A stretch of 43,513 nucleotides of DNA from Desulfobacterales bacterium (GTDB lineage Bacteria > Desulfobacterota > Desulfobacteria > Desulfobacterales > UBA11574), in NCBI GenBank assembly GCA_050117895.1, contig JASFLX010000001.1:1-43513 (forward strand), written 5' to 3'. The translations under genes were made by a program, and so were the position numbers. Shown one piece after another: positions 3,215-39,530 of this stretch. The stretch's first letter is position 1; every line of letters starts with the position of its first letter. The notes beneath the pieces are model-generated. The model was not told the DNA's origin and ran no database searches. It worked only from the letters and a program-made list of their open reading frames with translations.

Positions 3215-4099
3215 TTAATTCGAATTGTGCTTTTGACTCTGCATCTTGCACTTCAGCCTCAATGCCTCATCATATACCTTATTTTTCGGAAGGCCATAAT
3301 TTTTAGCTATGATTTTGGAAAGTTCGGATAGTTTGCTTTCTTTTTTCTCCAATGCTTTAATTATCTCGGTTCTAACGGTCTTTACAGAAATTTCTTTGTT
3401 CTCTTGACATCCGGTTACGAGAAGCGTGCATTCGCCTTTTATTGCCGATCGCGCATTCAAGCTGTTAAGAATTTCTGATAAGAATCCTCTAATAATTTCT
3501 TCGTGTAATTTGGTCATCTCTCTGCAAAGGACACCGTATCTGTCCCCCATAACAGATATGATCTCCTTTAAAAATGTCAAAATGCGCTTTGGCGATTCAT
3601 AAAATACCATGGTTTTGTTTTCACCGGCAAGGTCATTGAGTTGCTTAAGCCGTTTTGCTTTCTTTTTGGCGGGAAAGCCTATGAAAACAAAGGAATCGGT
3701 CGGCAGTCCCGAAACACTGAGAGCGGCAATGGCAGCCGACACACCGGGAATGGGGATGACTCTTATATGGTTAATGACCGCCTCTTTTACCAACCTGTAG
3801 CCGGGATCGGATACGGATGGCGTGCCTGCATTTGATACCAGGGCCACTGATGATCCGGCTTTGAGCCTGTTAATAAGATCCGGTGTACGTTCTTTTTCAT
3901 TATGTTCATGAAAAGAGATCATCCGACATTTGATATGGTGATGTGCCAGGAGCCTGCCGGTATGTCTTGTATCTTCTGCGGCCACAAGATCGACATGCCC
4001 GAGGGTATTGAGAGCTCTTATGGTGATATCGTCTCGGTTCCCTATGGGCGTGGCAACAACGTAAAGTATGCCGGGAGTATTGCTGGGTTGTAACGGCAA
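3215..4099 (-). CDS. rsmI: 16S rRNA (cytidine1402-2'-O)-methyltransferase
   Basis: N-terminal LYVVATPIGNRDDITIRAL...AAEDTRHTGRLL tetrapyrrole-methylase-fold signature of RsmI; 294 aa. Confidence 0.9.
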   Translation of the reverse strand: MPLQPSNTPGILYVVATPIGNRDDITIRALNTLGHVDLVAAEDTRHTGRLLAHHHIKCRMISFHEHNEKERTPDLINRLKAGSSVALVSNAGTPSVSDPGYRLVKEAVINHIRVIPIPGVSAAIAALSVSGLPTDSFVFIGFPAKKKAKRLKQLNDLAGENKTMVFYESPKRILTFLKEIISVMGDRYGVLCREMTKLHEEIIRGFLSEILNSLNARSAIKGECTLLVTGCQENKEISVKTVRTEIIKALEKKESKLSELSKIIAKNYGLPKNKVYDEALRLKCKMQSQKHNSN

Positions 4100-10178: not shown

Positions 10179-10348
10179 TGTCCATCCAGAAATGGTAGAT
10201 TTTGGTTTCCGGCAAGGCCCGAGCAAGTTTTCAACCTCCCCGAAAACATCACGGGATCTCCGACAGGCATAGCGCGCTATTTCGAGGATTGAAAACGAGC
10301 GAGAACGCCGCCGGGGGCCGAAAGATGCCGTTTATGGATGGACACTAG
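10175..10348. repeat. palindromic MITE-like element, copy A
   Basis: CTAGTGTCCATCCAGAAATGG (10175-10195) / CCGTTTATGGATGGACACTAG (10328-10348). Core CAGGCATAGCGCGCTATTTCGAGGATTGAAAAC. Near-identical to copy B except for a 28-nt internal insertion. Fills the whole convergent gap. Confidence 0.85.
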
Positions 10349-16607: not shown

Positions 16608-18998
16608 TTACATCTGGGTTTTTATATTGCGTTGTTCAAGCTGAACGATTCTGGGAGTAATAAAAATCAGCAGCTCGTCCAGCTGGTCTTCTTTGGAATT
16701 TGTTTTAAAGAGCCACCCGAGAACCGGTATTTTCATCAGTCCCGGAATCCCGCTTTCATCTCTGTCTGTTCTTGTCTTGCGAATACCGCCGATGATCACC
16801 GTATCCCCGTCATTGACCAGAAGTTCGGTATTGGCTTCCTTGGTGGTAAATGACAACTCATTATTAATAACCGCACCGACTTCATTGTTTTTTACTGAAA
16901 TTTCCATCGTAATGCGGTCATCAGGGGTAACATGCGGCGTAACTTCCAGCTCAAGGGCGATGTCTTCTAGCTCAACGGTCGTATTTCCATCCGCATCCAG
17001 CTTGGTATACGGGTATCTTAAACCCTGTATGATACTCGCCTGGGTATTGTCGAGTGCTAAAATTTTAGGGGTTGAAATTATCTTTACCTGTCCCTCACTT
17101 TCAGCGGCCTCTATGGTAGCCCCCAAGGTCCATGGCGAGCCGGTGAGCTTGCTGAAATTAATGCCCAAACTTCCGAGGCTGGATACCGGCGGATTGGTTG
17201 CCGTAAAGGAAAAATCACGGGTATATTTGCTGCCGACCGGACCATAAGTTCCTGACAGGGTGACGCCAAGCTCCCTTGAAAAGTTATTGCTGGCTTCGAC
17301 AATTCTGGCTTCGATGAGAACCTGTGGGGTTACCCGGTCAAGTTTTTGAACGATTTCCTTGGCCCGTTTAATGGATCGCGCCACATCCGACATGACGATC
17401 ATGTTGTTTGTTTTATCAATGCTAACCTTGCCACGTTCGGGGTTGAATTTACTATTTCCCTGATCATTCGTAAATTTTCCGTCTTCCACAAGATGTTTGC
17501 CGATATCAATGGCATCAACATAGGAGATACGCATAAATACGGTGATCAGTTCTTCCTGATTTTCGGCTTCCCGCTTTGCTGACAATTTTTCTTTTCTTTC
17601 CTCTTCTTCCTGTGCCAGAGTTTTAAGGGTAGCCACCCGTATGATGCCTTCTTCATATACCAAACCCAGCTTGTTCATCTTCAGGACCAAAGCCAGAACC
17701 TGGTCCCACGGTATGGGTTTTTCAAGGCTCAACGTAACCTCACCGGTTACATCCTTGTCAATGGCAAAGTTTTCTCCGCTGACTTCCCGTATAATTCGAA
17801 ATACGTTTTTAATATTGGTTCTAAAAAAATCAACCGCGATTTTTTCCCCGATATATTTCTTTTCACTCTCCGTTCGATAAAAATTCAAAGATCTTCTTAT
17901 ACCCGTAACGGCATCGGTGGCTTTTTGGCGCTCGGTATCATAAGCAGCACCCAAAGAGGCTTTTTCTGGTTTTGCTCCTGTAGGAGCAACCGGCTGGGTC
18001 ATCACTTTTTTCCATGGTGGAAGCTTGGCTTTATCAAAAGGCCTGGGAGATATTGAAGACGCTTCAAAATGGAGCAACAGAAGACTATCCGTCTGTTCCA
18101 CAAAATAGGGTACGGATTCTCTCAATTCAATGGTAACCAGAGAAGTCTCTTTCATGGCCGGTGACTGAACTGGTGTAATACGATCAACAGCGCTGTGAAA
18201 CCGTGTGGTCACCAATGGACGCTGGCGATATTCCGGAAGCCTTGTATTATAAAGACAAAGCAGGAGTTTTTTATCATCGATTTTTTTTAAGTCGTATGTG
18301 ATCGGTATTGTAGTCCCGATAATAATTGTCGATTTGCCGCCTTCTTCACCTGAAAAATCTATCCGGTTAATCCAGGCGGGTTTGTCTTTTTTAATTTGAG
18401 GGGTAACCGTTTTATTGACCGTGGTTTTGGCATCTAATTTTTTCTGTTCAGACGCGGCCGGCTGTTCCTTGGCATTTTGCGATGTATCGCTCGATGTTTC
18501 TTTGATCTTTAATTTCGCATCGGTAGAAACCGAAACTCCGGATTCTTTATTGAATGATATTTTAAGACCCGTATCTTCTCTGTTTACTTCATAAGAAGCA
18601 TCTTTTTTCAATAATATTTCAACACGGGATGTATGCCCTTTGGTTGTTAATTCAGAAGAATTGATTGAACTTACAATTTCACTGTCCGGCACATAGGAAG
18701 TATTGATATCGCCCAGAACCGTCTCAGGGAAATAAAGTAAAACCCCCAGGGGGAAAGTTTGTTTGACCGATGTATAGGTAAGCAGCCGGTTCCCTCTGAT
18801 CCAGATAGTAGAAGATGTTAAATCCTCGCTGGCACTTATGCCGGTTATATGCTTGGGCTCAAAAGCTTGGCCTGCATCCTTTTTTGTTTCTTTAACCGCC
18901 ATGGTGTTAGACGCACACCCAGCCAAAACCGCCATCAACATTCCCAAAAAGAAGATAATAGCTCCAATCTTTGACCATCTTTTGATGTTACCATTCAT
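16608..18998 (-). CDS. pilQ: type IV pilus secretin PilQ with two AMIN domains
   Basis: 796 aa; N-terminal lipoprotein-like signal, two AMIN-like modules, C-terminal secretin domain (ISTPKILALDNTQASI..., GIPGLMKIPVLGWLF). Confidence 0.9.
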   Translation of the reverse strand: MNGNIKRWSKIGAIIFFLGMLMAVLAGCASNTMAVKETKKDAGQAFEPKHITGISASEDLTSSTIWIRGNRLLTYTSVKQTFPLGVLLYFPETVLGDINTSYVPDSEIVSSINSSELTTKGHTSRVEILLKKDASYEVNREDTGLKISFNKESGVSVSTDAKLKIKETSSDTSQNAKEQPAASEQKKLDAKTTVNKTVTPQIKKDKPAWINRIDFSGEEGGKSTIIIGTTIPITYDLKKIDDKKLLLCLYNTRLPEYRQRPLVTTRFHSAVDRITPVQSPAMKETSLVTIELRESVPYFVEQTDSLLLLHFEASSISPRPFDKAKLPPWKKVMTQPVAPTGAKPEKASLGAAYDTERQKATDAVTGIRRSLNFYRTESEKKYIGEKIAVDFFRTNIKNVFRIIREVSGENFAIDKDVTGEVTLSLEKPIPWDQVLALVLKMNKLGLVYEEGIIRVATLKTLAQEEEERKEKLSAKREAENQEELITVFMRISYVDAIDIGKHLVEDGKFTNDQGNSKFNPERGKVSIDKTNNMIVMSDVARSIKRAKEIVQKLDRVTPQVLIEARIVEASNNFSRELGVTLSGTYGPVGSKYTRDFSFTATNPPVSSLGSLGINFSKLTGSPWTLGATIEAAESEGQVKIISTPKILALDNTQASIIQGLRYPYTKLDADGNTTVELEDIALELEVTPHVTPDDRITMEISVKNNEVGAVINNELSFTTKEANTELLVNDGDTVIIGGIRKTRTDRDESGIPGLMKIPVLGWLFKTNSKEDQLDELLIFITPRIVQLEQRNIKTQM

Positions 18999-18999
18999 G

Positions 19000-19647
19000 T
19001 TATTCTTCTCCAGGAGGTTTCAATTCTATTTCTTTTTTACGGATAGAAATTTTGCCGTAAATATCTTCAACCTCTTCCTCAACAATGATTTTATTCGGTA
19101 ATATATTTATTACCCTGCCTGCGTTTGTCCCGATGTAAGTTCCTTTCTTTACTATGTACCCCTTCCCGGAATCCTCTTCAACCAGGGCTTTGTTTCCGCT
19201 CGGAGCGCGTAATATTGCGACAAGTTTAAGCTGGCTTAAATCGAGTTTTTCAAGGGGTGTGAGCAGCCTGCGCCGAACTGCTTTTCTATGCTTCACCGGT
19301 AAAGCCACGGGTTTTTCTCTGATCAATGGTTTAAATGGATCCAGTTTTCCTTTGGAGTTGTAAAAGTCGTTTATTTCGGACGGTTCGATTTTTTCGATCG
19401 TCTTGGATACCGAAGCCATCCGTTTTTCTTTTAAATCACCAACCTCGCCCTTTGAAATATCCGGTGAAATTTTTGCTTTGGGCTTGGTCGTTACTTGTTT
19501 TGACTCATCTTTCTTGTCAATAATGATTTTTTTGGTGATCTTCCTGGACTTCGGGGGCGGCTCAGCTTTTTTATCACAACCCACCCAAAGGGAATATATG
19601 CAAATGAAACAAATGAAACTGCCGATTATGACTATTTTATTATCCAT
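19000..19647 (-). CDS. pilP: pilus assembly lipoprotein PilP
   Basis: Lipobox WVGC, Lys/Pro-rich linker, C-terminal beta domain (LKLVAILRAPSGNKALVE...GYIVKKGTYIG); position between pilO and pilQ. Confidence 0.7.
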   Translation of the reverse strand: MDNKIVIIGSFICFICIYSLWVGCDKKAEPPPKSRKITKKIIIDKKDESKQVTTKPKAKISPDISKGEVGDLKEKRMASVSKTIEKIEPSEINDFYNSKGKLDPFKPLIREKPVALPVKHRKAVRRRLLTPLEKLDLSQLKLVAILRAPSGNKALVEEDSGKGYIVKKGTYIGTNAGRVINILPNKIIVEEEVEDIYGKISIRKKEIELKPPGEE

Positions 19648-19658
19648 GACTCAGGGTT

Positions 19659-20315
19659 TTATTTCTTCTTTTTTTTCTTATCCTTTGTTTCGGGCTTCGT
19701 TTCCACAAACCGATAAGTAACAGCGGTGCATTTTGTGTCCAGTTGATTACTTTCTTTTGTTGCGGTCATCTTAATGTTGTCTATATTAACAATCCTATGT
19801 AACCTCGAAACCTTGTCGAAGAAAAGAGCGGTTTTATGATAGCTGCCCGTAACTAGTATTGATACAGGAATTTCCGCATAGAATTCTTTGATCTGCTCTT
19901 TTTTCGGCTCAAATAACAAAAATTCCAGACCGGCATCATGACCGGATCGGGAAATGCTTGACAGCAAAGAAGGTATTTCTTTTTTTTCGGGGAGTTTTTT
20001 CACGGCCACTTTAAAATCCGTTTCTGCCTTTTTGAATTTGTCCTGTAAATGCTTAAGCTCTTTTGCCTTTGCTTTTGCCTTGACAAGTTTTGTTTCCAGA
20101 GTTTCATGTTCGGATTTCAATTGGTCAATTTTTTTTACTTTCGGCTGATAAAAAAAATAGAAAAAAGGCCCCACAAGTATTAAAAAAATCCCAAAACATA
20201 TCAAAATCCGATATAGTTTTGGAAGCTTTCCGATTTTATCAGTCTTTTCTAATAAAAGATTCTTTACTTTCGAAATATCGATCTTCTTCATTTTTTTTTG
20301 CCCTGCCCGGAGCAA
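19659..20315 (-). CDS. pilO: pilus assembly protein PilO
   Basis: Single TM, coiled coil, then a ferredoxin-like domain; gene order. ATG at 20291 is a likely alternative start. Confidence 0.72.
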   Translation of the reverse strand: MLRAGQKKMKKIDISKVKNLLLEKTDKIGKLPKLYRILICFGIFLILVGPFFYFFYQPKVKKIDQLKSEHETLETKLVKAKAKAKELKHLQDKFKKAETDFKVAVKKLPEKKEIPSLLSSISRSGHDAGLEFLLFEPKKEQIKEFYAEIPVSILVTGSYHKTALFFDKVSRLHRIVNIDNIKMTATKESNQLDTKCTAVTYRFVETKPETKDKKKKKK

Positions 20316-20318
20316 TTT

Positions 20319-20939
20319 TTATTTTTGACTTTTCGATTGATTCAAAGAAATCTTACTGCAAGTAATTGCAAAGCTTTTTAAGTTTAATTTACTTATTTTC
20401 TTTTGTTCAAGCCTTTTCAGGTTTACCTTTTTATAAAGTTTTGAATTTTCTAAACGGGTCATAAAATCAGCTACGGTTTTATTATCCATGGCAATACCTT
20501 TGATGTCGATATTGTCCCCTTTTGCCTGGAAATCAATGAACCATAATCGCTTACCAGACTCGTTATCATTATCTGACAATGTATCCGATCCGGAATTTGA
20601 CGTGCTCTCAGCAACCATCTTGGTCATGTTATCAAGCAGAAAGAAGGCATCTTTTCGTTTTTTCTCAAGATTTTTAATCACTTTGGTCTTTTTCTCTAAA
20701 TTGTTTAAATCTTTTTTTATTCTATCAACTTCCTTTGCTTGGCTTTCAATTTTGGCCAACATTTTTTTCTTGTTTGCTATCTTTGTATTTAAACCATCGA
20801 TTCTTTTTTGCAAACTTATATTATAACCGACCAAGATGACAACAACAAATAGAAAAGATAAGAAAAATATACTCATCTGTTTACGAATGTTTTCTTTTTC
20901 ACGTATTTCTCGATAAGGTATCAGATTTATTCGTATCAT
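20319..20939 (-). CDS. pilN: pilus assembly protein PilN
   Basis: MIRINLIPYRE N-terminus (conserved PilM-binding INLLP-type motif), TM, coiled coil; 4-nt overlap with pilM. Confidence 0.8.
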   Translation of the reverse strand: MIRINLIPYREIREKENIRKQMSIFFLSFLFVVVILVGYNISLQKRIDGLNTKIANKKKMLAKIESQAKEVDRIKKDLNNLEKKTKVIKNLEKKRKDAFFLLDNMTKMVAESTSNSGSDTLSDNDNESGKRLWFIDFQAKGDNIDIKGIAMDNKTVADFMTRLENSKLYKKVNLKRLEQKKISKLNLKSFAITCSKISLNQSKSQK

Positions 20940-21991
20940 TTGTCACCAATTTTTCTTAATGCAAGACCCATACATATCGCAGCCTGGGGAGCCATCTGTT
21001 CAAGATAAGAAGAATCAAAACGGTCACTGTCGATGGATAAGTTTTGAAAAGGATTTATAATTTCGACGTCGCTTGAGGTTTCCACAGCCAAGAGTTGTCG
21101 AAACTCCTCAATGTTGGCCCCGCCGCCGCTAAGAATAATCTTTGTTATTTGATCTTCGGGGAATGTCGAGTAAAAGAAATCGAGAGCGCGTTTTATTTCA
21201 GTACACCAGTCGGTTACCACTGATGAAACAATGCCATTCAGATCTTCGTGGGGAATAATGTCTGGTTTCTCGCCAAGCTTAATCTCTTCGGCTTCCGTTA
21301 AAGAACATTCTACAAGGGAAGCAATTTTTTCGTTTATCTGTCCGCATCCCAGCGAAACATCGCGCATGAATACAGAAGTGTTATCTTTCATGATGTTCAA
21401 TGATGTCTTGCTGGCTCCAATATCAATAAGGGCTATATTTTCATCTCCCGGATCATAATTAAATTCAAAAATATTTTGGAGGGCAAACGCATCAACATCT
21501 ATTATGCAGGTATTAAGTCCGGTCATTCGGACCAGATTGATATATTCGTTAACCATTTCCTTTTTGGCCGCAACCAGAAGAACACTCATTTGATTTGGGT
21601 TGTGTTCGCTTTCCCCGAGTATTTGGAAATCTAGATTAACATCGCTTATATCAAACGGAATGTACTGTTCCGCTTCAAAATGGATCGATCCCTGTAACTC
21701 TTCTTCGCTCATATTCTGAACATTGATCTTTTTGACAATTACCGAGTATCCTCCGATGGAGATGGCTACATTTTTTTCTTTGAGCTTCGATTCCTTGAAG
21801 ATTTTACGGATAGATTCAGAAACAGTTTCAGGATCTTTAACAGCACCCTCTTCGATGAGTCCCGGTTCAATATCAATCGTGTGGAAACCTTTTAAGATAT
21901 GCTTTGTTTTTTTATCAACTATTTCGGAAATCTTTATAGTTCTTGAACCGATATCAAGGCCGATAAGATGAGTTTTTTTTCCAAAAATCAT
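20936..21991 (-). CDS. pilM: pilus assembly ATPase-fold protein PilM
   Basis: 351 aa actin/FtsA-like fold (IGLDIGSRTIK, ALIDIGASKTS, ILSGGGANI). Confidence 0.9.
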   Translation of the reverse strand: MIFGKKTHLIGLDIGSRTIKISEIVDKKTKHILKGFHTIDIEPGLIEEGAVKDPETVSESIRKIFKESKLKEKNVAISIGGYSVIVKKINVQNMSEEELQGSIHFEAEQYIPFDISDVNLDFQILGESEHNPNQMSVLLVAAKKEMVNEYINLVRMTGLNTCIIDVDAFALQNIFEFNYDPGDENIALIDIGASKTSLNIMKDNTSVFMRDVSLGCGQINEKIASLVECSLTEAEEIKLGEKPDIIPHEDLNGIVSSVVTDWCTEIKRALDFFYSTFPEDQITKIILSGGGANIEEFRQLLAVETSSDVEIINPFQNLSIDSDRFDSSYLEQMAPQAAICMGLALRKIGDK

Positions 21992-21997
21992 GATATA

Positions 21998-22198
21998 CTA
22001 TTCATCACCAAATATTTTGTTTTTGTCAGAAAGGCTGAAACCAAGGGCCAGAATGATTTTTCGTTGAGTTTCCAAGCGGCAAGGCATGCCTTTTTCTATG
22101 CGTGCAATCGTAATAGGAGACACCTTTGCCTTCCTGGCAAGTTCGGTTTTGCTCATCAGTAAAGATTCTCTAATTTTCTTTACAGAATTACCTTTCAT
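21998..22198 (-). CDS. XRE-family helix-turn-helix protein, first gene of the pilMNOPQ operon
   Basis: 66 aa; IRESLLMSKTELARKAKVSPITIARIEKG HTH_3-type motif; 6 nt upstream of pilM. Confidence 0.75.
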   Translation of the reverse strand: MKGNSVKKIRESLLMSKTELARKAKVSPITIARIEKGMPCRLETQRKIILALGFSLSDKNKIFGDE

Positions 22199-22220
22199 TC
22201 AATACCCTATAAAAAGAATA

Positions 22221-22342
22221 ATAGTTAAATTTGTAATATCGGTAAAAAGTATAATTTAATTAATAAATTTTGATTTTAAAACAATGTTACCTTAAATTAT
22301 AACTAATTTCAAGAACTTTTATATATAATTATAGTTAAATTT
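22221..22342. repeat. two exact ATAGTTAAATTT 12-mers 110 bp apart in a very AT-rich divergent control region
   Basis: 12-mer at 22221-22232 and 22331-22342, read directly from the sequence. Confidence 0.6.
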
Positions 22343-22615
22343 AAATTAATTGCTTTATTTTGTGGTTTGCTTAATTAAATGACTATATATAGTATGATAT
22401 AAGAACGTTAAAATATAAACAATATAATAATACTATCTAAACATAGGGTTAGATGCCACAAAATTGACCGGTTCTATTTTTTATTGAAGATGTCCATGAC
22501 CTGCATTTTTTTCAACGATTCATCACACCTCATACTATCGTCAGCATTTAAGAATCTAAACGCGCAAATTGTGACCGTTCAAGTTATATATTGTCAATGG
22601 TAATAAAGCATTACC

Positions 22616-22644
22616 TTGACTTTCATGATCAGGTTCCATATATG
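22616..22644 (+). promoter_or_regulatory. sigma-70-type promoter candidate for the kinase/regulator operon
   Basis: TTGACT (22616-22621), 17 nt, TATATG (22639-22644). The -35 overlaps the imperfect inverted repeat GTCAATGGTAAT/ATTACCTTGAC (22592-22620). Confidence 0.35.
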
Positions 22645-22726
22645 ATAGTTTTGTAAAAACTCAAATAACGACCTTTTACGAATTTATCAAATATATCAAT
22701 TCCAATCTGAATGATTAACCTTATTT

Positions 22727-24148
22727 ATGAGCATCCATTCATCAGAAGAAAAAGTCAAGCCGTTTAGACTGGTAAAATACTTTACGTTTACAAGCCTTAC
22801 GGTAATATTTATTGGGACATTGCTCCTCTCTTTTCTTAACACCCACCTGGCAAGGACCATGCAGCAAAAAAAAAGTGAAGATTACGCCAAGCTTCTCATA
22901 GAAAATCTGAACCATCAAGTCTTTTTGCAGTTCATAATTCCCGTTGCACTGAAATTTGGAAAGATTCAGCTCAGTGACAAAAAACAGTTCGAACGCATGG
23001 ACAAGGTCGTCAGAAGTACACTTCACAGCTTCAAAATCGATATGGTAAACATTTTCGATATAAATAATACCATTTCTTATAGCTTTGACCTATCGGTGAT
23101 CGGCAAAAAAGATGTCGGAGGTAAAGGCTATCAGGATGCAATTTCCGGCAAGTCCACTTCAAAACTTTTTCAAAGGGGAAATTGGTTCGAGATACTTCTG
23201 GGATTTTCGCCTCACAGCAAATTAATTACTTTTGCGCCGCTACGCGCGGAGCGGCCGCTTTCACGTATATCCGGCCCGGTACTCGGTGTTGTTGAAATCG
23301 TACAGGATTTAACGGAAGATTATAAAGCGATTTTTACTTTCCAGATAAGAATTATTAGTGCTTGCACCGTGGTCATGGGCGCTCTTTTTTTAGTGCTTCT
23401 ATATGTTGTCAAGAGAGGCGAAGCTATCATTGAACAGCGCGCTTTGGAAAGAATACGGCTAAAAGAACGGTTAAGTCGTGCGGAACATTTATCTTCTCTG
23501 GGTGAAATGGTGGCGGGAATCTCTCATGAAATCCGTAACCCGCTGGGTATTATTATGAGTTCCTCCGAGCTTTTGAAGAAAAAGATGGCCGACTACGATC
23601 CTTCAAATCCGATCCCAAATATAATCATTGAAGAATCTTCCCGATTGAACAATATCATAACAGATTTTTTGAATTTTGCGAAACCCAAAACCCCGACTTT
23701 GACATTGTGTAAAATCGAGGATATTATTGAAAAAAACATAACCTTCCTGGCATCACAGATTAAAGAGGAAGGATATGCTATTGATAAACATTATGATAAT
23801 AATCTTCCGGAAATAACCGCCGATCCTGATATGTTGTATCAGGCATTCCTTAACATTTTAATCAATGCCATGCAAGCCATGCCACAACGCGGTAAAATTA
23901 ATGTAAAAATCTGTTCCAGTGATAATGCTGTGGAAATATTTTTTGAAGATCAGGGGGAAGGTATCGCAGAAGATATTTTAGAAAAGATATGGGATCCTTT
24001 TTTCACCACCAAGTCAAAAGGGACCGGCCTGGGACTTGGTATTGTAAAAAATATTATCGAATCTCACGGTGGAAGCGTACAGATCAGTAACCGATCGGTA
24101 TCCGGAGCCAAAGTGACCGTAAAATTACCCGTAGAGCAGGGAGTATAA
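22727..24148 (+). CDS. sensor histidine kinase (two TM helices flanking a periplasmic domain; HisKA + HATPase_c)
   Basis: H-box SHEIRNPL; N, G1 and G2 boxes ([21 protein letters not shown]). Confidence 0.85.
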
Positions 24149-24150
24149 TT

Positions 24151-25518
24151 ATGGAGACGGTCCTGATTGTAGATGATGAAAAAAATTATCCGCTGATATT
24201 AGGTGCGGTTCTCGAAGAAGAAGGTTTTGAAACCTTCGCGGCCAACAGCGGAGCTGAAGCGCTTGAAATACTGAAAAACACCGACGTTGACCTGGTACTC
24301 ACAGATATGAAAATGCCGTCAATGGACGGTATGGAACTTTTGGAGAAAATCAAAGCCAAAGATGAGGAACTTCCGGTCATTATGATGACGGCTCACGGTA
24401 CGGTGGATAAGGCCGTGGAGGCGATGCAGAAAGGCGCCTACAGCTACATCCTCAAACCCTTCGACAACGACAGGTTGATTCTTTATGTGAACAAGGCCGT
24501 TTCCGTGTATCGGGTAATCAAAGAGAACCGGCACCTGAGGAATGCTGTGGGATTACAATATAGTTTCGGAAATATCATCGGAAAAAGTAAAGTGATGCAG
24601 GATGTTTTCGATACTATCCGGAAAGTCGCGCCCACCACAGCTACGGTTTTGATTGAAGGTGGAAGCGGCACCGGAAAGGAACTGGTCGCAAAATCCATTC
24701 ATTTTAACAGTCTGCGGCGAGATAAGCCCTTTATTGCTGTGAACTGCAGCGCACTTGCCGAATCTCTCCTCGAAAGCGAACTTTTTGGCCATGAAAAAGG
24801 AGCGTTCACCGGTGCCGTGGCCATGAAGAAAGGCCGTTTTGAACTGGCCGACGGCGGGACCCTTTTTCTTGATGAAATAAGCGAGCTGTCGCAAAGTCTT
24901 CAGGTAAAACTGTTACGGATTCTTCAGGAAAAAGTTTTCGAAAGGGTTGGGGGGGTTAGACCGATTTCGGTCGACATTCGTATTATTGCCGCTACAAACA
25001 AAAATCTCAAAGAAGAGATGGAACAGGGACGATTCAGAGAGGACCTCTATTATCGATTGAATGTGGTCCATATTGTCCTTCCCCTTTTAAGGGAGCGCCA
25101 AGAGGATATTCTCCTGCTTGTGGACCACTTTATAAATAAATATGGAAATGAACGAAAATTTGCAGTCTCTGTAACCGGCCTTGATCAGGAGGTCGAACGT
25201 CTTTTTTACGATTACAGTTGGCCCGGAAATGTTCGTGAACTGGAAAATGTCATTGAACGGGCAATGATCATGTGCCCCGGCGAAGTTATTAGGCTTTCTG
25301 ACCTTCCGAAAGATTTTAAGGGCAATGTAAAAGATGCCCAGTTTCTTGACAGTATACCAATTGATGCAAAATTATCCGAAACCGTTACAACAATAGAAAA
25401 AATGATGATTAAAAGGGCTTTGAAACTGACAAATAATGTTCAATCAAAAGCTGCCGAACTCCTTGGAATCGGGAAAAGCGGATTTAATAAAAAAATAAAT
25501 AAATATCGAATTTATTAA
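24151..25518 (+). CDS. sigma-54-dependent response regulator (REC-AAA+-Fis HTH; NtrC/PilR class)
   Basis: [13 protein letters not shown] receiver, GSGTGKE Walker A, GAFTGA sigma-54 contact loop, C-terminal HTH. Confidence 0.9.
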
Positions 25519-25590
25519 GTTGGTTTTAAAAATTAAAAGCAACCGTTTTATTCTTATTATTTCGTTAGTAATGTATAGAATACACCTTGG

Positions 25591-25660
25591 GTTTCCATTT
25601 GGAAACCATTCGGTATCCAAACGGAAACCTTTTATGGGTCATATTTTAGTTTCCTTGGAT
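25591..25660. promoter_or_regulatory. candidate enhancer (UAS): tandem GTTTCC-N4-GGAAAC palindromes
   Basis: GTTTCCATTTGGAAAC (25591-25606, perfect palindrome); GTATCCAAACGGAAAC (25613-25628, centres 22 bp apart); partial GTTTCCTTGGAT (25649-25660). Confidence 0.45.
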
Positions 25661-25690
25661 GTTTTTTTTATGAGTTGGATTTTCAACTTA

Positions 25691-25708
25691 TTTTCAACTC
25701 GTTGAAAA
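25691..25708. promoter_or_regulatory. TTTTCAAC-TC-GTTGAAAA palindrome / IHF-like site between UAS and promoter
   Basis: Perfect 8+8 palindrome. TTTCAACTCGTTG has one mismatch to the IHF consensus WATCAANNNNTTR. Further TTTTCAAC copies at 25680-25687 and 25781-25788. Confidence 0.3.
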
Positions 25709-25757
25709 TTCATACGATATGATATTTTATGGATTATATTTATTTTTTTAAAAAATA

Positions 25758-25773
25758 TGGCAAGCAAATTGCA
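25758..25773 (+). promoter_or_regulatory. sigma-54 (-24/-12) promoter
   Basis: TGGCAAGCAAATTGCA against consensus TGGCAC-N5-TTGCW: GG and GC exactly 10 nt apart, one mismatch in the specified positions. Confidence 0.6.
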
Positions 25774-25783
25774 TAACTAATTT

Positions 25784-25857
25784 TCAACCTAATAATTTCT
25801 TCATCTGTTTTCTTCCTTAATGACTAATCGGAAACGTTCCGATTAGTCATTTTTTTT
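25784..25857 (+). ncRNA. candidate sigma-54-dependent small RNA (about 74 nt)
   Basis: Bounded by the -24/-12 promoter and an intrinsic terminator. No ORF. 5' half is the CU-rich stretch TTCTTCATCTGTTTTCTTCCTTAA. The 5' end is inferred from promoter geometry only. Confidence 0.5.
25820..25857 (+). terminator. rho-independent terminator
   Basis: Perfect 14-bp stem ATGACTAATCGGAA / TTCCGATTAGTCAT (25820-25833 / 25837-25850) followed by T7 (25851-25857). Confidence 0.75.
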
Positions 25858-25867
25858 GAAATGCGCA

Positions 25868-26015
25868 CAGAAGTGGTTTCAAAGCCTTCAATCAGGTTCA
25901 AAGTCAAGGCGGACCGAGGGGTTCAAACATAGGAATATATTTAATATTTCAAGTATTGAATCCTTCGGTCCAACACAGAAATTGGGCCTGAGGGGAGGTT
26001 TTGAAACCACTTCTA
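25868..26015. repeat. palindromic MITE-like element, copy D
   Basis: CAGAAGTGGTTTCAAA (25868-25883) / TTTGAAACCACTTCTA (26000-26015). Internal TCAAAGTCAAGGCGGACCGAGG and CAACACAGAAATTGGG shared with copy E. Confidence 0.75.
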
Positions 26016-26705
26016 CCCTGTTACTCTTTCTTTTATAATCTCAACATACATGGAGCCGGAATGATCAGATAGGATTTTCTTAAAGGCACTTATACTCTTA
26101 TCATGATCGCCCATGGCAGCATAAAGCTCTCCCAAGTTGAAAAGAGCCTCGTCCTTGATGGTATAATCCGGCGCTGAAGCAATGGCTTCAAAATAACTGA
26201 CTGCGGTTTTAAAATCTTTTTTTGCTTTATAAGAGTAGCCCAGCCCGTTTAAGCTTAAGTTTTTTATAAACATTTCGTCATTAAAATTTATTAGCGATTT
26301 TTTGTAAAGCTCTATTGCCTTGTCGTAATTTTTGGCGGTGTAACACATATTCGCATAAATAAAACTGGCCAGTTTACTCCCGTCTCTTTTTGAATATTTA
26401 TCCATAATAAGCTGCAAATCATTTTCCACATCAAAGAAGGCTTTTTCCGGAGTGCTGGTTTTCAATTTTGTCTGGTAGTTGATGATTACCTGCTGAAGCA
26501 AAGCAAAGGCTTTATCTTCGGATTTTTTTATAAAATACACCATTCCGATAATAATGATACTTATGATAACCATAACGCCCAAAGCGCTTGAAAAAATCAG
26601 CTTATATTCAGAGATAAATTCAAATAATTTTGCCCAAAAGCTTATAAACTCATCGGGTTCACTCAGGTCTCTTTTCCGGGATCGGGACACCCTTTTTTTC
26701 GCCAT
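26013..26705 (-). CDS. membrane-anchored TPR protein (YfgM-like)
   Basis: Basic N-terminus, single TM (ALGVMVIISIIIIGMVYF), then TPR repeats. The stop codon TAG lies in the terminus of repeat copy D. Confidence 0.7.
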   Translation of the reverse strand: MAKKRVSRSRKRDLSEPDEFISFWAKLFEFISEYKLIFSSALGVMVIISIIIIGMVYFIKKSEDKAFALLQQVIINYQTKLKTSTPEKAFFDVENDLQLIMDKYSKRDGSKLASFIYANMCYTAKNYDKAIELYKKSLINFNDEMFIKNLSLNGLGYSYKAKKDFKTAVSYFEAIASAPDYTIKDEALFNLGELYAAMGDHDKSISAFKKILSDHSGSMYVEIIKERVTG

Positions 26706-27702
26706 GATTCCTCCAATATTTTTTTATTCTCTGCCATCCTTGCTCCGGGATGTTTGCTCCGACGACCTGACATACTTCATAACCACATGCAGACCCGAGG
26801 TTACCGCATTGTTCAAGGCTATAACCGTTAACCAGTCCAAACAGAAAACCCGACGCCCATAGGTCTCCGGCTCCTGTGGTATCAACAGCAGGGTCGAGTG
26901 ACATGGGTTCAATCTTTATAATTTTGCCGGCATGGGAAATGTAACTTCCCCGTTCTCCCACTTTAAGTGCTGCAATAAGCGTGTGTTCCGAAAGAGAGGC
27001 GACCGCTTTTATTTCATCCGAGTATCCTGTAAATGCCAGTGCTTCATCCTCATTGGCAAGCAAAATATCAACAAAATTTTTTACAATTTTTTTAAGAAGA
27101 ACTTTGGACTCCTCAACAACCGTAAAACTGGCAAGGTCTAAAGATACCAGTGCTCCGGCCTCTTTCGCGGCATTTAAGGCGGCAAGTATCAGATCTTCGT
27201 TAAAAAGAAGATATCCTTCGATATGTACAATTGCCGCATTTTCAAAGCATCTTTTTGTGATTTCTTGGGGTTGTGTTTCTGAAGACGCACCCAGGAATGT
27301 AAACATGGAACGCTGTGCATCGTGAGTGATAATGGAAAGGACTCTTCCGGTGAATGAAGATGATGTAAAAAGCACGGGATCGACATTGTTTTTTCTTAAA
27401 TTTGTTTCAAAAAACTTTCCTATTTTACCTTTGCCTCTTTTTCCGACAAAGCGGGCATGTCCACCGAGTTTTGCAATACCTATAACCGTGTTGCAGGCAG
27501 ACCCCCCCGGAACCATCGTCGGTTTTTTGGATGCTTGTGACACTGTCAGCTCTATGAACTCTTTGTCAACATATTTCATCCCACCCTTTATCGCACCGGT
27601 TTTCTGCAAAAATTCATCGCTTTCACGTGCAAGAATATCCACAAGAGCCGATCCAACTCCCACAACTAACTTTCTTTGCTTTAATTTCTGACCGGTAAAC
27701 AT
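26659..27702 (-). CDS. PfkB-family carbohydrate/nucleoside kinase (adenosine kinase-like)
   Basis: DTTGAGDLWASGF motif and N-terminal GxGxxxxD lid. The C-terminal tail overlaps the next gene by 47 nt. Confidence 0.8.
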   Translation of the reverse strand: MFTGQKLKQRKLVVGVGSALVDILARESDEFLQKTGAIKGGMKYVDKEFIELTVSQASKKPTMVPGGSACNTVIGIAKLGGHARFVGKRGKGKIGKFFETNLRKNNVDPVLFTSSSFTGRVLSIITHDAQRSMFTFLGASSETQPQEITKRCFENAAIVHIEGYLLFNEDLILAALNAAKEAGALVSLDLASFTVVEESKVLLKKIVKNFVDILLANEDEALAFTGYSDEIKAVASLSEHTLIAALKVGERGSYISHAGKIIKIEPMSLDPAVDTTGAGDLWASGFLFGLVNGYSLEQCGNLGSACGYEVCQVVGANIPEQGWQRIKKYWRNHGEKKGVPIPEKRPE

Positions 27703-33298: not shown

Positions 33299-33442
33299 AG
33301 TTTCCATCCAGAAATGGTAGATTTTGGCTTCCGGCAAGGCCCGAACGAGTTTTTAACCGCAGGCATAGCGCGCTATGTCGAGGATTGAAAACGAGCGAGA
33401 ACGCCGCCGGAGGCCGAAAGATGCCGTTTCTGGATGGAAACT
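33299..33442. repeat. palindromic MITE-like element, copy B (compact prototype)
   Basis: AGTTTCCATCCAGAAATGG (33299-33317) / CCGTTTCTGGATGGAAACT (33424-33442), 1 mismatch. Core CCGCAGGCATAGCGCGCTATGTCGAGGATTGAAAAC. Confidence 0.85.
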
Positions 33443-36233
33443 AATGTCTGGTCAAACTTCCATATATCCGTAACAGTTTGTCGGGCAGTTCGCGGACGTC
33501 AGATATCACATTGTGATGAACATTTCCATAAAGATCATCCAGCTTGGGATCTCCTGCAAAATTAACGGTTATGGCATGAGTATATATGTTTTTCGAACGC
33601 GCCTCGAATATGGCTTTTCGTGTATCTTCAATTGCATAATTTTGCTTGTAATCAACATCGTTGGGGAATCCGTCACCTAAAATAATCAATAAACGGACTT
33701 TTGAAGAAATCTCTTTAAGTTCACGGGTCGCATGGCGGATGGCGGCCCCCATTCGGGTGCTCCGTTGAGGCGTCATGGCATTAATACGCCGCTTGACAGT
33801 ATCATCCATATTTTCATCGAGATCTTTTATGCGAAAGTAATCCACTCCCAAGCGTCCGGTTCCGGAAAAACCTGCGATAGCAAAGGCATCTCCCACAACT
33901 TCCAGCGCTTCGCAAAAAAGTACGATAGCCTCCTTCTCCACATCCAGAACGGTCGCATTTGAACCCAAAACAGCGTTTGCTGTTGAACGTGACAGATCGA
34001 CAAGCAGGAGCACGGCAACATCCCGGGTCTGTTTAATGTGTTTGATATACAGCCTGTCCGATGGAATTTTTCCCGCCTTTTTATCTATGGCAAAGTCTAA
34101 CAGTGCCCGGTAATCGAACTCATCTCCCTCCGTCCATTGTCTTAATCTTATAAGTCCCTCGGGCTTCAACAGTTCAAAAGCATAGCGTATCCTTTTTACC
34201 AGGCCCCTGTAATGTTTTAATGTTAACTTATAAAAATCGCTTTCTTTTTCGGTTATAGATTTGTCGAGCACCCTCACATGAGAATGGAGATAATCCTGCA
34301 AGTTACAGTCCCATTCTTTGTGCCAGGTAACAATACCGGAAAAATCTTCTTTCTGAAGCACGATCGTGTCGTCAGTGCCGAGGAGTTCGGACAAATCCAT
34401 CCAGGATAAGTCTATGGAAACTTTTTGTTGGGATAACATATGAGGCCCGTGGTTTTTCCGAAAACATAATATAATTTCTTTCAGGTCCTGATGGGAAACC
34501 CTACCGTTGTTTTCCATCAGGCGTTTTTTAATATCCGATGTATAGACTTCAAACCCCTTTTCCACGAGTTGAACCTTTAAGATCCTGGCCAAACGCTCAT
34601 ATTTCCGATTCGCACGGAAAAAAAGATCAGGTCTTAATGTACGGCCAAAGGGTGTTTGCATGGGCTTATAAAATCCCTTAAGTTCTTTTTTATCATATGA
34701 CGTCTGGTTCAAAAGTCTTTCCATTTCCGGATAAATTCTGACAACAAGTTCCGCGCAGGACTCAACCGTAGAGTTTTCATTTATTCCTGTTTCGAAAGAA
34801 TCCTTTAACTGCTTGGTATAATTATATATTTTGGCATCCAAGCCAAAATGCTCTTTTTCTGAAATACCCAGGGCAATCCACAGATACAAAAGAAAGACCA
34901 TGTCAACCGGCTTATGGTTTTTAATCATCCGTTCGGCTTCTCGTTGAAGCACGGGAAGGGTCTGCCTGACCAGGCCCGGATACTGACGGTGCAACATCAA
35001 TCGGATGCGGCCGTGTTCGAAGATGGTGAACAAATCCGCTGCCAGCGCCGTGACCGGAAAATACGAGAAAAAACGCTCCAGATCAGATAGATCTTCCCCG
35101 TTTTGGATGACATCGAATTTTAAATCATAATCTTTTAATTCCGGGATGTCCCGGCATTTTTCCATGGCTTTTTCAAGATCAAAATCGAAGGTGCCAAACT
35201 CATAATGTCCGGCTTCAAGTCTTGCAAGGCATTTATATAGGGCTATGTTTTCGGCTTTTTGGGGAAAATGACTGATTTCATCAGGAAGGTATATGAACTT
35301 CCCGTCTGAACAGACAAAAATAATTTTATGGGGATCTGTTAGTAATGAATCCGGGAGTAAAGAAAGCGGCCGCACTGAAACTGCAAGGCCGGTTCTGGCC
35401 ATAAGATAACGGTTCAACTGCTGCCGAACCCGGGAAATATGAATCGTGACCTGCATATCGGTAAAGGTATCGATCCCGAATTTGGATTCCAGTGAAAGAA
35501 ATTTTTTTGTTAGTTTGGGGTTACGTTTTAATTTTTCGAGCCCCACTGAAACAAAACGACTTAAAGCCTCTTTGGAAAGCAGATCCAGTCCTTTTTCAAG
35601 GCCGTCCAGAAAAAAATCGGCCAGGTGACAATCAGCCTTTATCACGCGTCCAAGCTGTTCTGTCTGCCAGGCTCGCTTTGAAGAAGAAAAGGCACGCACG
35701 GCCCCGGGCAGGATATGAGCAAAATGCTGGCTCTGGACATAGGACATATCCTGGGAAAAGATATCGCCAAGCAAATCAAGGGTTGCAGATGCGGCTTCAA
35801 TCTGGTTTCCGTTTAATAATTCCGACAAAACCCTAAGCGGATCTTTCAGGGTATATGTACCTTTGTTCAGCATAATCTCGAGGGTTTGCAAAAAGCGCTT
35901 TAAAAAATGTTTGTCCCCGTATTTTATTACCGGCACAAGATGCTCGGCCATAATCCGCCCCAGCGTCGGACCGTTGCGCCCAAAGTTTCGGACCAGATCC
36001 CGGTAGCGAAAAATTTTTTTAAGATCAACATCCCCAATCAGATCCGCATAACCGATTGCCAGAGTTCGACCGAAAGAAATCTCTCGGGCTAATCCCCACA
36101 ACGTCTCTTCAACCAGCAATGTAAGGCTTTGGTTTGAAACCGGACTGTCTTTCTGATTCAAGGCAGTCGTAACCGCCTTTGCCAGGTCCGGATCGGCAAT
36201 AGCGAGCTGTTTGAGTGGATCTTCTTTGTGCAT
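33441..36233 (-). CDS. large VWA-domain protein (CbbO/NorD-like partner of a MoxR-class ATPase)
   Basis: 930 aa. C-terminal VWA with MIDAS LLLVDLSRSTAN and ILGDGFPND; long helical N-terminal region. Confidence 0.75.
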   Translation of the reverse strand: MHKEDPLKQLAIADPDLAKAVTTALNQKDSPVSNQSLTLLVEETLWGLAREISFGRTLAIGYADLIGDVDLKKIFRYRDLVRNFGRNGPTLGRIMAEHLVPVIKYGDKHFLKRFLQTLEIMLNKGTYTLKDPLRVLSELLNGNQIEAASATLDLLGDIFSQDMSYVQSQHFAHILPGAVRAFSSSKRAWQTEQLGRVIKADCHLADFFLDGLEKGLDLLSKEALSRFVSVGLEKLKRNPKLTKKFLSLESKFGIDTFTDMQVTIHISRVRQQLNRYLMARTGLAVSVRPLSLLPDSLLTDPHKIIFVCSDGKFIYLPDEISHFPQKAENIALYKCLARLEAGHYEFGTFDFDLEKAMEKCRDIPELKDYDLKFDVIQNGEDLSDLERFFSYFPVTALAADLFTIFEHGRIRLMLHRQYPGLVRQTLPVLQREAERMIKNHKPVDMVFLLYLWIALGISEKEHFGLDAKIYNYTKQLKDSFETGINENSTVESCAELVVRIYPEMERLLNQTSYDKKELKGFYKPMQTPFGRTLRPDLFFRANRKYERLARILKVQLVEKGFEVYTSDIKKRLMENNGRVSHQDLKEIILCFRKNHGPHMLSQQKVSIDLSWMDLSELLGTDDTIVLQKEDFSGIVTWHKEWDCNLQDYLHSHVRVLDKSITEKESDFYKLTLKHYRGLVKRIRYAFELLKPEGLIRLRQWTEGDEFDYRALLDFAIDKKAGKIPSDRLYIKHIKQTRDVAVLLLVDLSRSTANAVLGSNATVLDVEKEAIVLFCEALEVVGDAFAIAGFSGTGRLGVDYFRIKDLDENMDDTVKRRINAMTPQRSTRMGAAIRHATRELKEISSKVRLLIILGDGFPNDVDYKQNYAIEDTRKAIFEARSKNIYTHAITVNFAGDPKLDDLYGNVHHNVISDVRELPDKLLRIYGSLTRH

Positions 36234-38126: not shown

Positions 38127-39290
38127 ATGATAAACAACCCCCATAACATAGATCGACTCGTATTTGAAGACAAAGAGATTATACTTTTGGGGACAGCACA
38201 CGTATCAAAGGAAAGCGTCCGGCTGGTCGACCATGTTATTGCGTCGGAAAAACCTGACATTGTCTGTGTTGAGTTGTGCGAATCCAGATTCCAGTCCATT
38301 CGACAAAAAGACAAATGGCTGGACAAAGATATCATCAAAGTGATTAAGGAGAAAAAATCCTTTCTTCTTCTTTCAAATCTTCTCCTGGCGTCTTTTCAAA
38401 AAAGAATTGCAGAAAAATTTGACATCAAACCCGGGGAGGAAATGATAAAGGCCATTGACGCCGGAGAGACCGTGGGAGCAGGAATACATCTTGCCGACAG
38501 GAACATCCGTATCACTCTGACCAGAACATGGCGGGTCATGGGATGGTGGGATAAAATCAAACTGTTGTTTCAACTCATTTTATCCTTGGGAAAAATCGAC
38601 GAAGTTAGCGAGGAAGACATAGAAAAAATGAAGCAGGAGGATGTGCTTCAAACCATACTTTCCGATGTTGGGAAGTCGCTTCCGACATTGAATGATATAT
38701 TGATTGATGAGAGAGACCGGTATCTGACTCACAAAATCCGGACGGCACCCGGAAAAAAAATTGTTGCGGTTGTGGGTGCAGGACATGTTCCCGGTATTAA
38801 AAAATACTGGAACCAAGACATCGATTTTGAGACCCTTGAGCAAATCCCGCCCAAAGGAAAGACATCAGGAATCTTAAAATGGATAATTCCTACGGCTATA
38901 CTTGTGCTATTTGTCTTAGGCTTTTATCATGGCGGGGCCAATACCGGAACCGATATGATAACGTGGTGGATTATGGCGAACGGTATTCTGGCAGGTCTTG
39001 GCGCCGTCATTGCTTTGGCTCATCCCCTAACCATTCTCTCGTCGGTTTTGGCCGCCCCTTTGACTTCCTTGAATCCCATGATTGCTGCAGGATGGGTTGC
39101 CGGGCTTGTTGAAGCCTTTTCACGGAAACCCAGGGTCAGGGATTTCGAACAATTACCGGAGGACATAGTTTCCATAAGGGGATTCTGGAAAAACAAAATT
39201 ACGCGGATCCTCTTGGTGGTTGTTTTTACCAACCTGGGAAGTTCTCTGGGTACCTTCGTTGCTATTCCGCTAATGGTAAAAGTATTGTAA
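38127..39290 (+). CDS. TraB/GumN-family protein
   Basis: ILLGTAHVSKESV, CVELCESR and VVGAGHVPGI motifs; C-terminal TM helices. Confidence 0.85.
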   Translation: MINNPHNIDRLVFEDKEIILLGTAHVSKESVRLVDHVIASEKPDIVCVELCESRFQSIRQKDKWLDKDIIKVIKEKKSFLLLSNLLLASFQKRIAEKFDIKPGEEMIKAIDAGETVGAGIHLADRNIRITLTRTWRVMGWWDKIKLLFQLILSLGKIDEVSEEDIEKMKQEDVLQTILSDVGKSLPTLNDILIDERDRYLTHKIRTAPGKKIVAVVGAGHVPGIKKYWNQDIDFETLEQIPPKGKTSGILKWIIPTAILVLFVLGFYHGGANTGTDMITWWIMANGILAGLGAVIALAHPLTILSSVLAAPLTSLNPMIAAGWVAGLVEAFSRKPRVRDFEQLPEDIVSIRGFWKNKITRILLVVVFTNLGSSLGTFVAIPLMVKVL

Positions 39291-39307: not shown

Positions 39308-39530
39308 TAGGGAGACCTTTGAAAAATGTCAATTTTTGTTTAAGTTCAAGGCAATTCTGCAGGATAGCAGAATTGGACAGCTGCCAAGCTGCCCGCAAGG
39401 GCGAGGGGCATGGACGCCCCGAGTCAACGCGATAATTTTAACCGCAGGAATACATTGAGTATTTTGAGGATTAAAATTTGAGCCTGACGCAGAAATTGAG
39501 CAAAAAGAGGCGTTTTTCAAAGGTCTCCTA
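39308..39530. repeat. palindromic MITE-like element, copy C (long variant)
   Basis: TAGGGAGACCTTTGAAAAATG (39308-39328) / CGTTTTTCAAAGGTCTCCTA (39511-39530). Core CCGCAGGAATACATTGAGTATTTTGAGGATTAAAATT. Confidence 0.75.

Follow-up and report, generated by a model that had tools for sequence, protein, structure and literature searches.

In this study we describe a predicted small RNA (sRNA) gene in a window of 43,513 nt from a Desulfobacterales bacterium (GenBank assembly GCA_050117895.1, contig JASFLX010000001.1, positions 1-43,513, forward strand). The window is AT-rich, with a G+C content of 42%, and the closest relatives of its sequence are uncultured Desulfobacterales. The predicted gene lies 3' of the genes for a sensor histidine kinase and an NtrC-family sigma-54 enhancer-binding response regulator. 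Between the stop codon of the regulator gene and a convergent gene for a TPR protein are found, in order, two palindromes, a sigma-54 promoter, a near-invariant unpaired stretch and a Rho-independent terminator (Table 1). It is considered likely that this unit encodes a sigma-54-dependent sRNA of the two-component system, which would act in trans by base-pairing.

The putative promoter, TGGCAAGCAAATTGCA, has canonical -24/-12 spacing with a single mismatch to TGGCAC-N5-TTGCW, and sits 240 bp past the regulator stop at 25518. Based on the -12 element and the onset of conservation, the start of the RNA is placed at 25784-25787. The 5' region of the RNA (~33 nt) is unpaired both in a single-sequence fold and in the consensus fold, and is followed by the hairpin AATGACTAATCGGAA-ACG-TTCCGATTAGTCATT at 25819-25851, from which a T-run continues to 25857. 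The hairpin folds with -19.6 kcal/mol (z = -6.9 vs shuffles). With its stable stem-loop, U-tract and evolutionarily kept structure, 25819-25857 has the features of an intrinsic terminator as judged from sequence, and the predicted RNA as a whole has the layout of a trans-acting (Hfq-type) sRNA, in which a conserved single-stranded seed precedes a terminator hairpin with a U tail. Covariance model R1 finds only one full-length copy in the window. No Rfam 15 family matched the window at the gathering threshold, and a search of 25758-25857 at E <=10 returned only noise (RsaOG at 17.6 bits vs a 50-bit threshold, and miRNA models). A further sigma-54 match with at most one mismatch, the only other one in the window, is found at 38999-39014 (TGGCGCCGTCATTGCT) within an open reading frame (ORF) at 38127-39290 and is probably a chance match.

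There is no ORF between promoter and terminator, where the lone ATG opens an 8-codon frame inside the stem; this frame is not conserved, and coding on the plus strand was rejected. Coding on the minus strand, from an AAGGAGG-N7-ATG arrangement, was likewise rejected, as the frame reaches a stop after 6 codons in the window and in loci L081 and L084, and the ATG is ATA in half of the homologues. All genes 3' of the RNA (TPR, PfkB, SH3, radical SAM and FeoB) are on the minus strand. A first-pass annotation of the window had described a sigma-54 promoter with one mismatch about 240 bp after the regulator stop, an unpaired, CU-rich and anti-Shine-Dalgarno-like 5' half, no coding sequence between promoter and terminator, and downstream genes all on the opposite strand, each of which was borne out. 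Its perfect 14-bp stem with T7 and its RNA of ~74 nt from ~25784 stand as a hairpin with a T-run and as a short RNA; the stem is 15 bp with T8, a trivial difference, and the RNA is now predicted at ~72 nt.

Related loci were collected in two ways. Twelve loci (L081-L092) came from the contigs of ten relatives of the regulator (~79-93% identical) and were picked without reference to the RNA, and 58 further metagenome loci were retrieved with a degenerate pattern confined to the RNA core, giving a total of ~70 related Desulfobacterales loci with 46 distinct RNA sequences. All twelve protein-found loci carry the palindromes, the promoter, the RNA core and the hairpin with its T-run 3' of the regulator gene. 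Their promoters take the form TGGCA(A/G)G-N4-TTGCA, followed by a variable spacer of 12-13 nt, and their hairpins differ in sequence between lineages with pairing kept and a T-run after. The promoter, as TGGC-N8-TTGCA, is found in every metagenome locus with enough upstream sequence, and the core is followed by hairpin and T-run in 57/58 of these loci, the T-run being broken in L125 (TTATTGTTT). Across 54 distinct upstream sequences, TGGC and TTGCA are invariant and variation is confined to the N positions, with a distance from promoter to core of 12-13 nt in 53 and of 17 nt in one. The mean majority fraction rises from 0.56 over the 20 nt that precede the promoter to 0.95 within it, falls to 0.63 in the 12-nt spacer and is back at 0.95 in the RNA core, and from these two islands it follows that conservation begins at the predicted transcription start, ~25786.

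The terminator stem evolves by compensatory change. In an alignment of the 46 distinct RNAs (A3), 91% of the stem cells are paired and compensatory changes occur in 11 of the 12 pairs; these values were reached by none of 500 shuffles, and slid registers pair in at most 50% of cells. RNAalifold predicts the terminator hairpin as the sole structure and leaves the 5' half unpaired. The near-invariant, CU-rich segment of 37 nt in the RNA reads AACCUAAUAAUUUYUUYAUCUGUUUU(YY)UYCUUAAUG in the relatives. When L089 is set aside (a 2-nt deletion shifts its alignment), the 5' regions of the other 45 sequences vary only by C/U transitions at five positions and by a U-to-A change at one position in three sequences, and variation at core positions unconstrained by the scan pattern is solely by C/U transition. 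Half of the distinct RNA sequences (23/46) have CCUCCU as their pyrimidine tract, and with G-U wobble the variants CUUCCU, CCUUCU, UCUUCU and UUUCCU all retain the ability to pair with AAGGAGG, which fits a seed that would occlude Shine-Dalgarno regions. The first-pass annotation had offered a regulatory RNA output of the two-component system as one of its readings and had called for a check of synteny and covariation in relatives. This reading is strongly supported by the ~70 conserved loci, in which the RNA is syntenic with the regulator, by the covariation of the stem and by conservation that sets in at the predicted start.

Linkage of the RNA to the regulator is found in every locus with recovered flank, where the regulator gene lies 266-800 bp upstream on the same strand. 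The kinase is co-conserved with the regulator in most loci, and the commonest gene order is pilM, HTH_3, kinase, regulator, RNA, TPR, PfkB. On the downstream side the neighbour is TPR in most loci, pstCAB (converging on the RNA) in L090 and L113, and a Cys-rich ORF in L089; on the upstream side, most loci have pilM/HTH_3, L089 has MlaD and L081 has aconitase/HSP20/HU. In L089, which derives from Eth-SRB1 (RPGP01000040.1), the upstream gene is MlaD-like, and the Cys-rich ORF is accompanied by another sigma-54 regulator; the predicted RNA lies at ~641111-641184 of this record, on its minus strand. In L081, from the chromosome of a Desulfobacterales metagenome-assembled genome (MAG; CP070768.1), the kinase is cut to a 56-residue HATPase_c fragment (3823-3993), with regulator, palindromes, promoter and RNA all kept intact and no pil genes next to them. 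The predicted RNA lies at ~2627637-2627716 of this chromosome. The linkage of regulator and predicted RNA outlasts this change of neighbourhood, through three downstream and three upstream contexts. As a separate observation, the Cys-rich ORF of L089 (4822-5184, 120 aa, same strand) begins 35 nt past the RNA terminator and encodes an internally duplicated protein (twice ...EWKNRVLCSDEGCIGVIGPDGRC.ECGKIYE...) with no Pfam match on record.

Beyond these loci the distribution of the RNA appears narrow. Species-representative genomes yielded only distant regulators (<=73% identical), and R1, applied to 81 sources, detected neither another copy in the window nor a homologue next to regulators of <=73% identity. 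A 33-bit R1 match, from a Buttiauxella locus, has the look of a terminator unrelated to this RNA. An Rfam scan next to Myxococcota and other regulator homologues found neither Pxr nor another sRNA. Within the sampling here, the RNA family appears to be confined to one clade of sediment Desulfobacterales.

The palindromes upstream of the promoter fall into two classes (Table 1). In the window, GGTTTCCATTTGGAAACC is a perfect match to GTTTCC-N4-GGAAAC, a pattern that occurs 10 times in the window at <=2 mismatches vs 2.7 expected. The two palindromes are 22 bp, or two helical turns, apart, a spacing that is kept in 8/9 type-A loci, the exception being L084, where the second site does not match the search pattern. 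Regulators of class A end soon after their recognition-helix region, and in class B this region reads ...SGLNWKIKKFKL and the C-terminus reads ...KSGLNWKIKKFKL, with an extension of 7-8 residues. The class of palindrome matches the C-terminus of the regulator without exception. It cuts across overall similarity, because P0006 (type B) is 93% identical to the window regulator over residues 1-380 and 60% identical over 381-455, and the corresponding values for P0054 (type A) are 82% and 75%. Since the types switch together with the DNA-binding C-terminus of the regulator, the palindromes are probably its enhancer, that is, its predicted binding sites. The palindromes are within ~400 bp of the regulator gene's 3' end, so a single recombination event could swap both, and this pattern suggests that the DNA-binding domain and its operator have been swapped together as a cassette. 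For integration host factor (IHF), a site between enhancer and promoter was found only as a poorly conserved one-mismatch match, TTTCAACTCGTTG near 25692, and none is claimed.

Two further observations concern the type-B loci. In L085-L088 and L091-L150, the palindrome lies within ~78-bp tandem repeats that are present in one to three copies. Some type-B loci also contain a purine box, (GA)GGAAAACAGA(AAAA), upstream of the promoter on the same strand and ~129 nt before the RNA start (L094 3292-3305, L097 4826-4839 and L136 3050-3063, with similar sites in L092, L100, L101, L111, L122 and L145). It is complementary to UCUGUUUUCCUC of the RNA over 10-12 nt (15/16 nt in L094) and would be contained in read-through transcripts of the regulator gene. 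The purine box could be a feedback or self-sequestering site, or could have arisen by chance in a purine-rich stretch.

Table 1. Features of the sRNA locus and its neighbourhood in the window, and the two palindrome classes in the related loci
Feature	Position	Strand	Remarks
pilQ, pilP, pilO, pilN, pilM	16608-21991	-	Divergent from the kinase/regulator pair
Small HTH_3 (XRE-type) gene, 66 aa	21998-22198	-	Between pilM and kinase; kept there in most loci
Sensor histidine kinase	22727-24148	+	Pfam HisKA, HATPase_c; presumed cognate sensor
NtrC-family sigma-54 enhancer-binding response regulator	24151-25518	+	Pfam Response_reg, Sigma54_activat, HTH_8; presumed activator of the sRNA gene
Intergenic region, 494 bp	25519-26012		Regulator stop to TPR gene
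Distal palindrome GGTTTCCATTTGGAAACC	25590-25607		Putative regulator site; TTTCC core starts 166 bp before TGGC
Proximal palindrome GGTATCCAAACGGAAACC	25612-25629		TTTCC core starts 144 bp before TGGC
Sigma-54 promoter TGGCAAGCAAATTGCA (predicted)	25758-25773	+	-24 GG at 25759-60, -12 GC at 25771-72
Predicted small RNA, ~72 nt	25786-25857	+	Covariance model R1, 97.8 bits
Unpaired near-invariant 5' region AACCUAAUAAUUUCUUCAUCUGUUUUCUUCCUU	25786-25818	+	Presumed seed / anti-Shine-Dalgarno region
Rho-independent terminator (predicted)	25819-25857	+	15-bp stem, 3-nt loop, U8 tail
TPR protein gene	26013-26705	-	Convergent on the RNA
PfkB kinase gene	26659-27702	-	
Palindrome class A: TTTCC-N4-GGAAA	~-166/-144 from TGGC		2 copies, 22 bp apart; window and 8 other loci
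Palindrome class B: TTCAAA-N2-TTTGAA	~-145, -223, -301 from TGGC		1-3 copies, ~78 bp apart; all other loci

The translated kinase has two predicted membrane helices (~residues 17-38 and 205-230) that flank a presumably periplasmic domain of ~165 aa. In the regulator sequence are found the phospho-acceptor D52 in the receiver, a Walker A motif, an AAA+ domain with GAFTGA and a Fis-type helix-turn-helix (HTH). The best NCBIfam matches of the regulator are AtoC (518 bits vs a cut-off of 714), NtrC and ZraR, all under their curated cut-offs, and the LuxO model scored 391 bits vs its 800-bit cut-off. An exact-protein look-up gave no record of the window regulator.

Several repeats accompany these genes. 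The HTH_3 gene adjoins a very AT-rich, divergent intergenic region of 528 bp (22199-22726), with a 35-nt direct repeat inside it (22198-22232 and 22308-22342). On the other side of the locus, a near-perfect hairpin of 147 nt (25869-26015; -82 kcal/mol, z = -12) lies between the RNA terminator and the TPR stop codon, abutting the latter. It is missing from all four closest relatives, where the spacer is ~15-25 nt, and is therefore an insertion specific to the window genome. No second copy was found in the window or in any fetched locus, and the hairpin may be an element resembling a miniature inverted-repeat transposable element (MITE) or a repetitive extragenic palindrome (REP). Elsewhere in the window, one family of long intergenic inverted repeats is present twice, at 10175-10348 and 33299-33443, with halves that are 92-95% identical, and their ends (AGTGTCCATCCAGAAATGG...) loosely resemble the TTTCC-N4-GGAAA palindrome. 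A separate intergenic inverted-repeat hairpin of ~218 nt is found at 39311-39528.

We propose that the membrane kinase would sense a periplasmic signal and phosphorylate the regulator, which would bind both palindromes (25590-25629) ~150 bp upstream of the promoter. By looping the DNA and hydrolysing ATP, the regulator would open the closed sigma-54 complex at TGGCAAGCAAATTGCA, and transcription would begin near 25786 and end at the hairpin/U8 terminator. The RNA would then use its pyrimidine tract (CCUCCU or CUUCCU) and the flanks of this tract to pair with the Shine-Dalgarno/start regions of target mRNAs and, most likely in trans and probably with Hfq, would alter the translation or stability of its targets. 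In this scheme, comparison of the loci bears out the promoter, the boundaries of the RNA, the fold of its terminator hairpin, its linkage to the regulator and the way in which palindromes and DNA-binding module covary, and we infer transcription, dependence on the regulator and RpoN, and base-pairing as the mode of action.

Several points weigh against this interpretation. At <=1 mismatch the sigma-54 consensus has 2 matches in the window vs 1.18 expected, a count reached by 30/100 shuffles; the promoter match is thus at chance level on the window sequence alone, and its reality rests on the comparative evidence. No terminator was found in the window between the regulator stop and the RNA, and some of the RNA could therefore come from read-through and processing, not from the sigma-54 promoter. 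For the 58 metagenome loci, core invariance is in part circular, being built in by the search pattern, and conservation is fairly tested by the 12 protein-ascertained loci, by positions unconstrained by the pattern and by features that the pattern did not require. No significant target was detected in the 43-kb window among 37 translation-initiation regions and all 60-nt windows, and the best seed duplex in the window (-20.6 kcal/mol, z ~ -3, with 37 genes tested) is not distinctive. Feedback on the start region of the regulator mRNA was not significant in ~35 loci (z +0.2 to -2.3). Lastly, two loci with regulators 73% identical to that of the window keep the regulator without this RNA: in L001 (6377-6408) the intergenic region between regulator and TPR is just 30 bp and lacks the element, and in L002 (6402-6530) it is 130 bp and contains a weak TGGCCAGCATACCGCA with no recognizable RNA. 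The regulator, then, need not be dedicated to the RNA.

Some of these points would also be expected if the hairpin simply ended the kinase-regulator operon, the sigma-54 match had arisen by chance and the conserved stretch belonged to the 3' untranslated region (3'-UTR) as an element of it, given that no other terminator follows the regulator gene and that the promoter consensus alone occurs at chance frequency. A 3'-UTR, however, would not need promoter or enhancer features, and here TGGC/TTGCA is invariant amid varying flanks, the distance to the core is 12-13 nt in all but one locus, and the enhancer-like palindromes, at canonical distance, covary with the DNA-binding domain of the regulator. 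We regard this explanation as very unlikely, and the hairpin probably terminates both the regulator and the sRNA transcripts, two roles that are compatible. There is a still slighter chance that the conserved 37 nt function as DNA and not as RNA, for instance as the operator of a protein or as a recombination site. The 5' region shows no covariation, and conservation of sequence alone cannot tell DNA function from RNA function; nevertheless, the stretch fits exactly between a conserved promoter and a covarying hairpin whose T-run is confined to one strand, and its conservation starts at the predicted +1. It is also conceivable, though unlikely, that a real sigma-54-dependent RNA is made that does not pair with mRNAs and acts by protein titration, as CrcZ does on Hfq, or in cis or as antisense on the convergent TPR transcript. 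Such a role would agree with the lack of a detected target, with a 5' region rich in A/U and pyrimidines that could be a protein-binding platform, with an RNA end ~50 nt from the convergent TPR stop codon in most loci, and with a hairpin that has no minus-strand U-tract, so that TPR transcripts could read through it as antisense. Sponge RNAs typically have repeated GGA or CA-type motifs, which are missing here; one short unstructured region under strict conservation, in which only wobble-compatible C/U changes are seen, is instead typical of a seed, and the RNA is kept where TPR is not its neighbour (L089, L090 and L113).

The first-pass annotation had also considered that a sigma-54-dependent pilA gene once stood 3' of a pilS-pilR pair and that its deletion left promoter and terminator behind as a scar. 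In Geobacter and Myxococcus, pilA comes after pilR. The annotation was correct that the kinase/regulator pair is divergent from pilMNOPQ and that the window contains no pilin: a scan of all six frames for G[FMILVY][TS][LMF][IVLT]E found no motif. Against a scar, promoter and terminator enclose neither a pilin nor any other ORF in any of the ~70 loci, conservation is higher in the 37-nt body than in its flanks and the stem changes in a compensatory manner, and the unit is also found away from pil genes (L089 and L081). The short form is under clear purifying selection, and we reject the scar, to which we assign practically no probability. Nor is there support for the description of the site as the slot where pilA normally sits, as kinase and regulator are not demonstrably PilS and PilR. 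PilS of Pseudomonas is a multi-pass protein, unlike the two-helix kinase here, the regulator scores best as a generic AtoC/NtrC type with no PilR model among its listed NCBIfam matches, and the regulator-RNA pair also occurs away from pilMNOPQ in the same two loci. A regulator homologue from a Geobacter MAG lies in an NtrY/NtrX-like context and not beside pilA.

The preferred reading, a base-pairing sRNA under its adjacent regulator, has precedents. The Qrr/LuxO system of Vibrio, cited in the first-pass annotation, is apt as an architecture and, of the functional analogues, is the one known best. Qrr RNAs depend on sigma-54 and the NtrC-type LuxO, are encoded beside their activator, and consist of a conserved unstructured seed and a terminator, acting by Hfq-dependent base-pairing. 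The locus described here shares the position beside a presumed NtrC-type activator and the unstructured conserved presumed seed followed by a terminator, but qrr1 is divergent from luxO and does not lie 3' of it, Qrr RNAs have four stem-loops in ~100 nt, and the RNA here has no match to Qrr in Rfam. Closer precedents are Pxr/Nla19, NrsZ/NtrC and the non-coding RNAs (ncRNAs) of Desulfovibrio. In Myxococcus xanthus and further Myxococcales, Pxr lies 262 nt downstream of nla19 and is served by a separate sigma-54 promoter (PMC5568312). Both Pxr and the RNA here belong to the former Deltaproteobacteria (PMC5568312), are placed just 3' of an NtrC-type sigma-54 regulator (262 nt there vs ~270 nt here), have a sigma-54 promoter of their own (predicted here) and are conserved with the regulator while other neighbours change. 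Pxr differs in being 108 nt, with three stem-loops, and processed, whereas the RNA here, at ~72 nt, combines a single hairpin with an unstructured 5' half. The two showed no sequence similarity, and no Rfam match was obtained (Pxr included, if present in the library).

NrsZ with NtrBC and CrcZ with CbrAB are RpoN-dependent sRNAs under NtrC-family two-component systems, a dependence that is predicted here. The crcZ gene follows cbrB. In Pseudomonas, nrsZ lies between ntrC and PA5126, which are arranged tail-to-tail, and its intergenic position directly after ntrC has the same geometry as here (PMC4253122). NrsZ differs in being modular, ~226 nt and processed, and CrcZ is a ~400-nt sponge for Hfq/Crc; neither has sequence or structure in common with the RNA here, and both come from a different phylum. 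In Desulfovibrio vulgaris Hildenborough, the regulators DVU0653 and DVU0679 each have, as a mapped target, an ncRNA encoded right 3' of their own gene; the DVU0679 ncRNA was seen on tiling arrays, and the binding sites and promoters of both are conserved in relatives, their function being unknown (PMC3333781, PMC4641369). These cases resemble the present one in that a sulfate reducer carries a small RNA immediately 3' of the gene for a sigma-54 two-component regulator. They belong to another order, Desulfovibrionales, and the likeness is one of gene arrangement.

On present sequence evidence, the RNA is best read as a new family that would follow the known design of a sigma-54 regulator with an adjacent sRNA, and not as a new mechanism. 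A more far-reaching possibility, which we consider rather improbable, is that the RNA is the principal, perhaps sole, output of a periplasm-sensing system syntenic with the pilus operon, serving as an anti-Shine-Dalgarno switch in the manner of Pxr and Qrr for surface or collective traits (for example pili, extracellular electron transfer or consortium formation), while DNA-binding domain and enhancer are exchanged as a cassette with promoter and RNA fixed. Such a system would span a widespread clade of marine-sediment Desulfobacterales that includes Eth-SRB1, the partner bacterium of ethane-oxidising archaea, and the cassette exchange, if true, would be a case of an enhancer-binding protein whose specificity was swapped in nature. 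The paired switch of palindrome and regulator C-terminus offers a compact natural data set on DNA-recognition specificity of the Fis-type HTH in enhancer-binding proteins. Regulatory RNAs have hardly been explored in marine sulfate reducers that are uncultured or in bacteria living in syntrophy with alkane-oxidising archaea, and the locus provides a cleanly delimited candidate, with a sensor kinase, an activator, a predicted enhancer, a promoter and a ~72-nt RNA that contains a probable seed. It would add a lineage to the recurring design seen with Pxr, NrsZ, CrcZ, Qrr and the Desulfovibrio ncRNAs, and supports the view that this design may be a general solution and not a peculiarity of model organisms.

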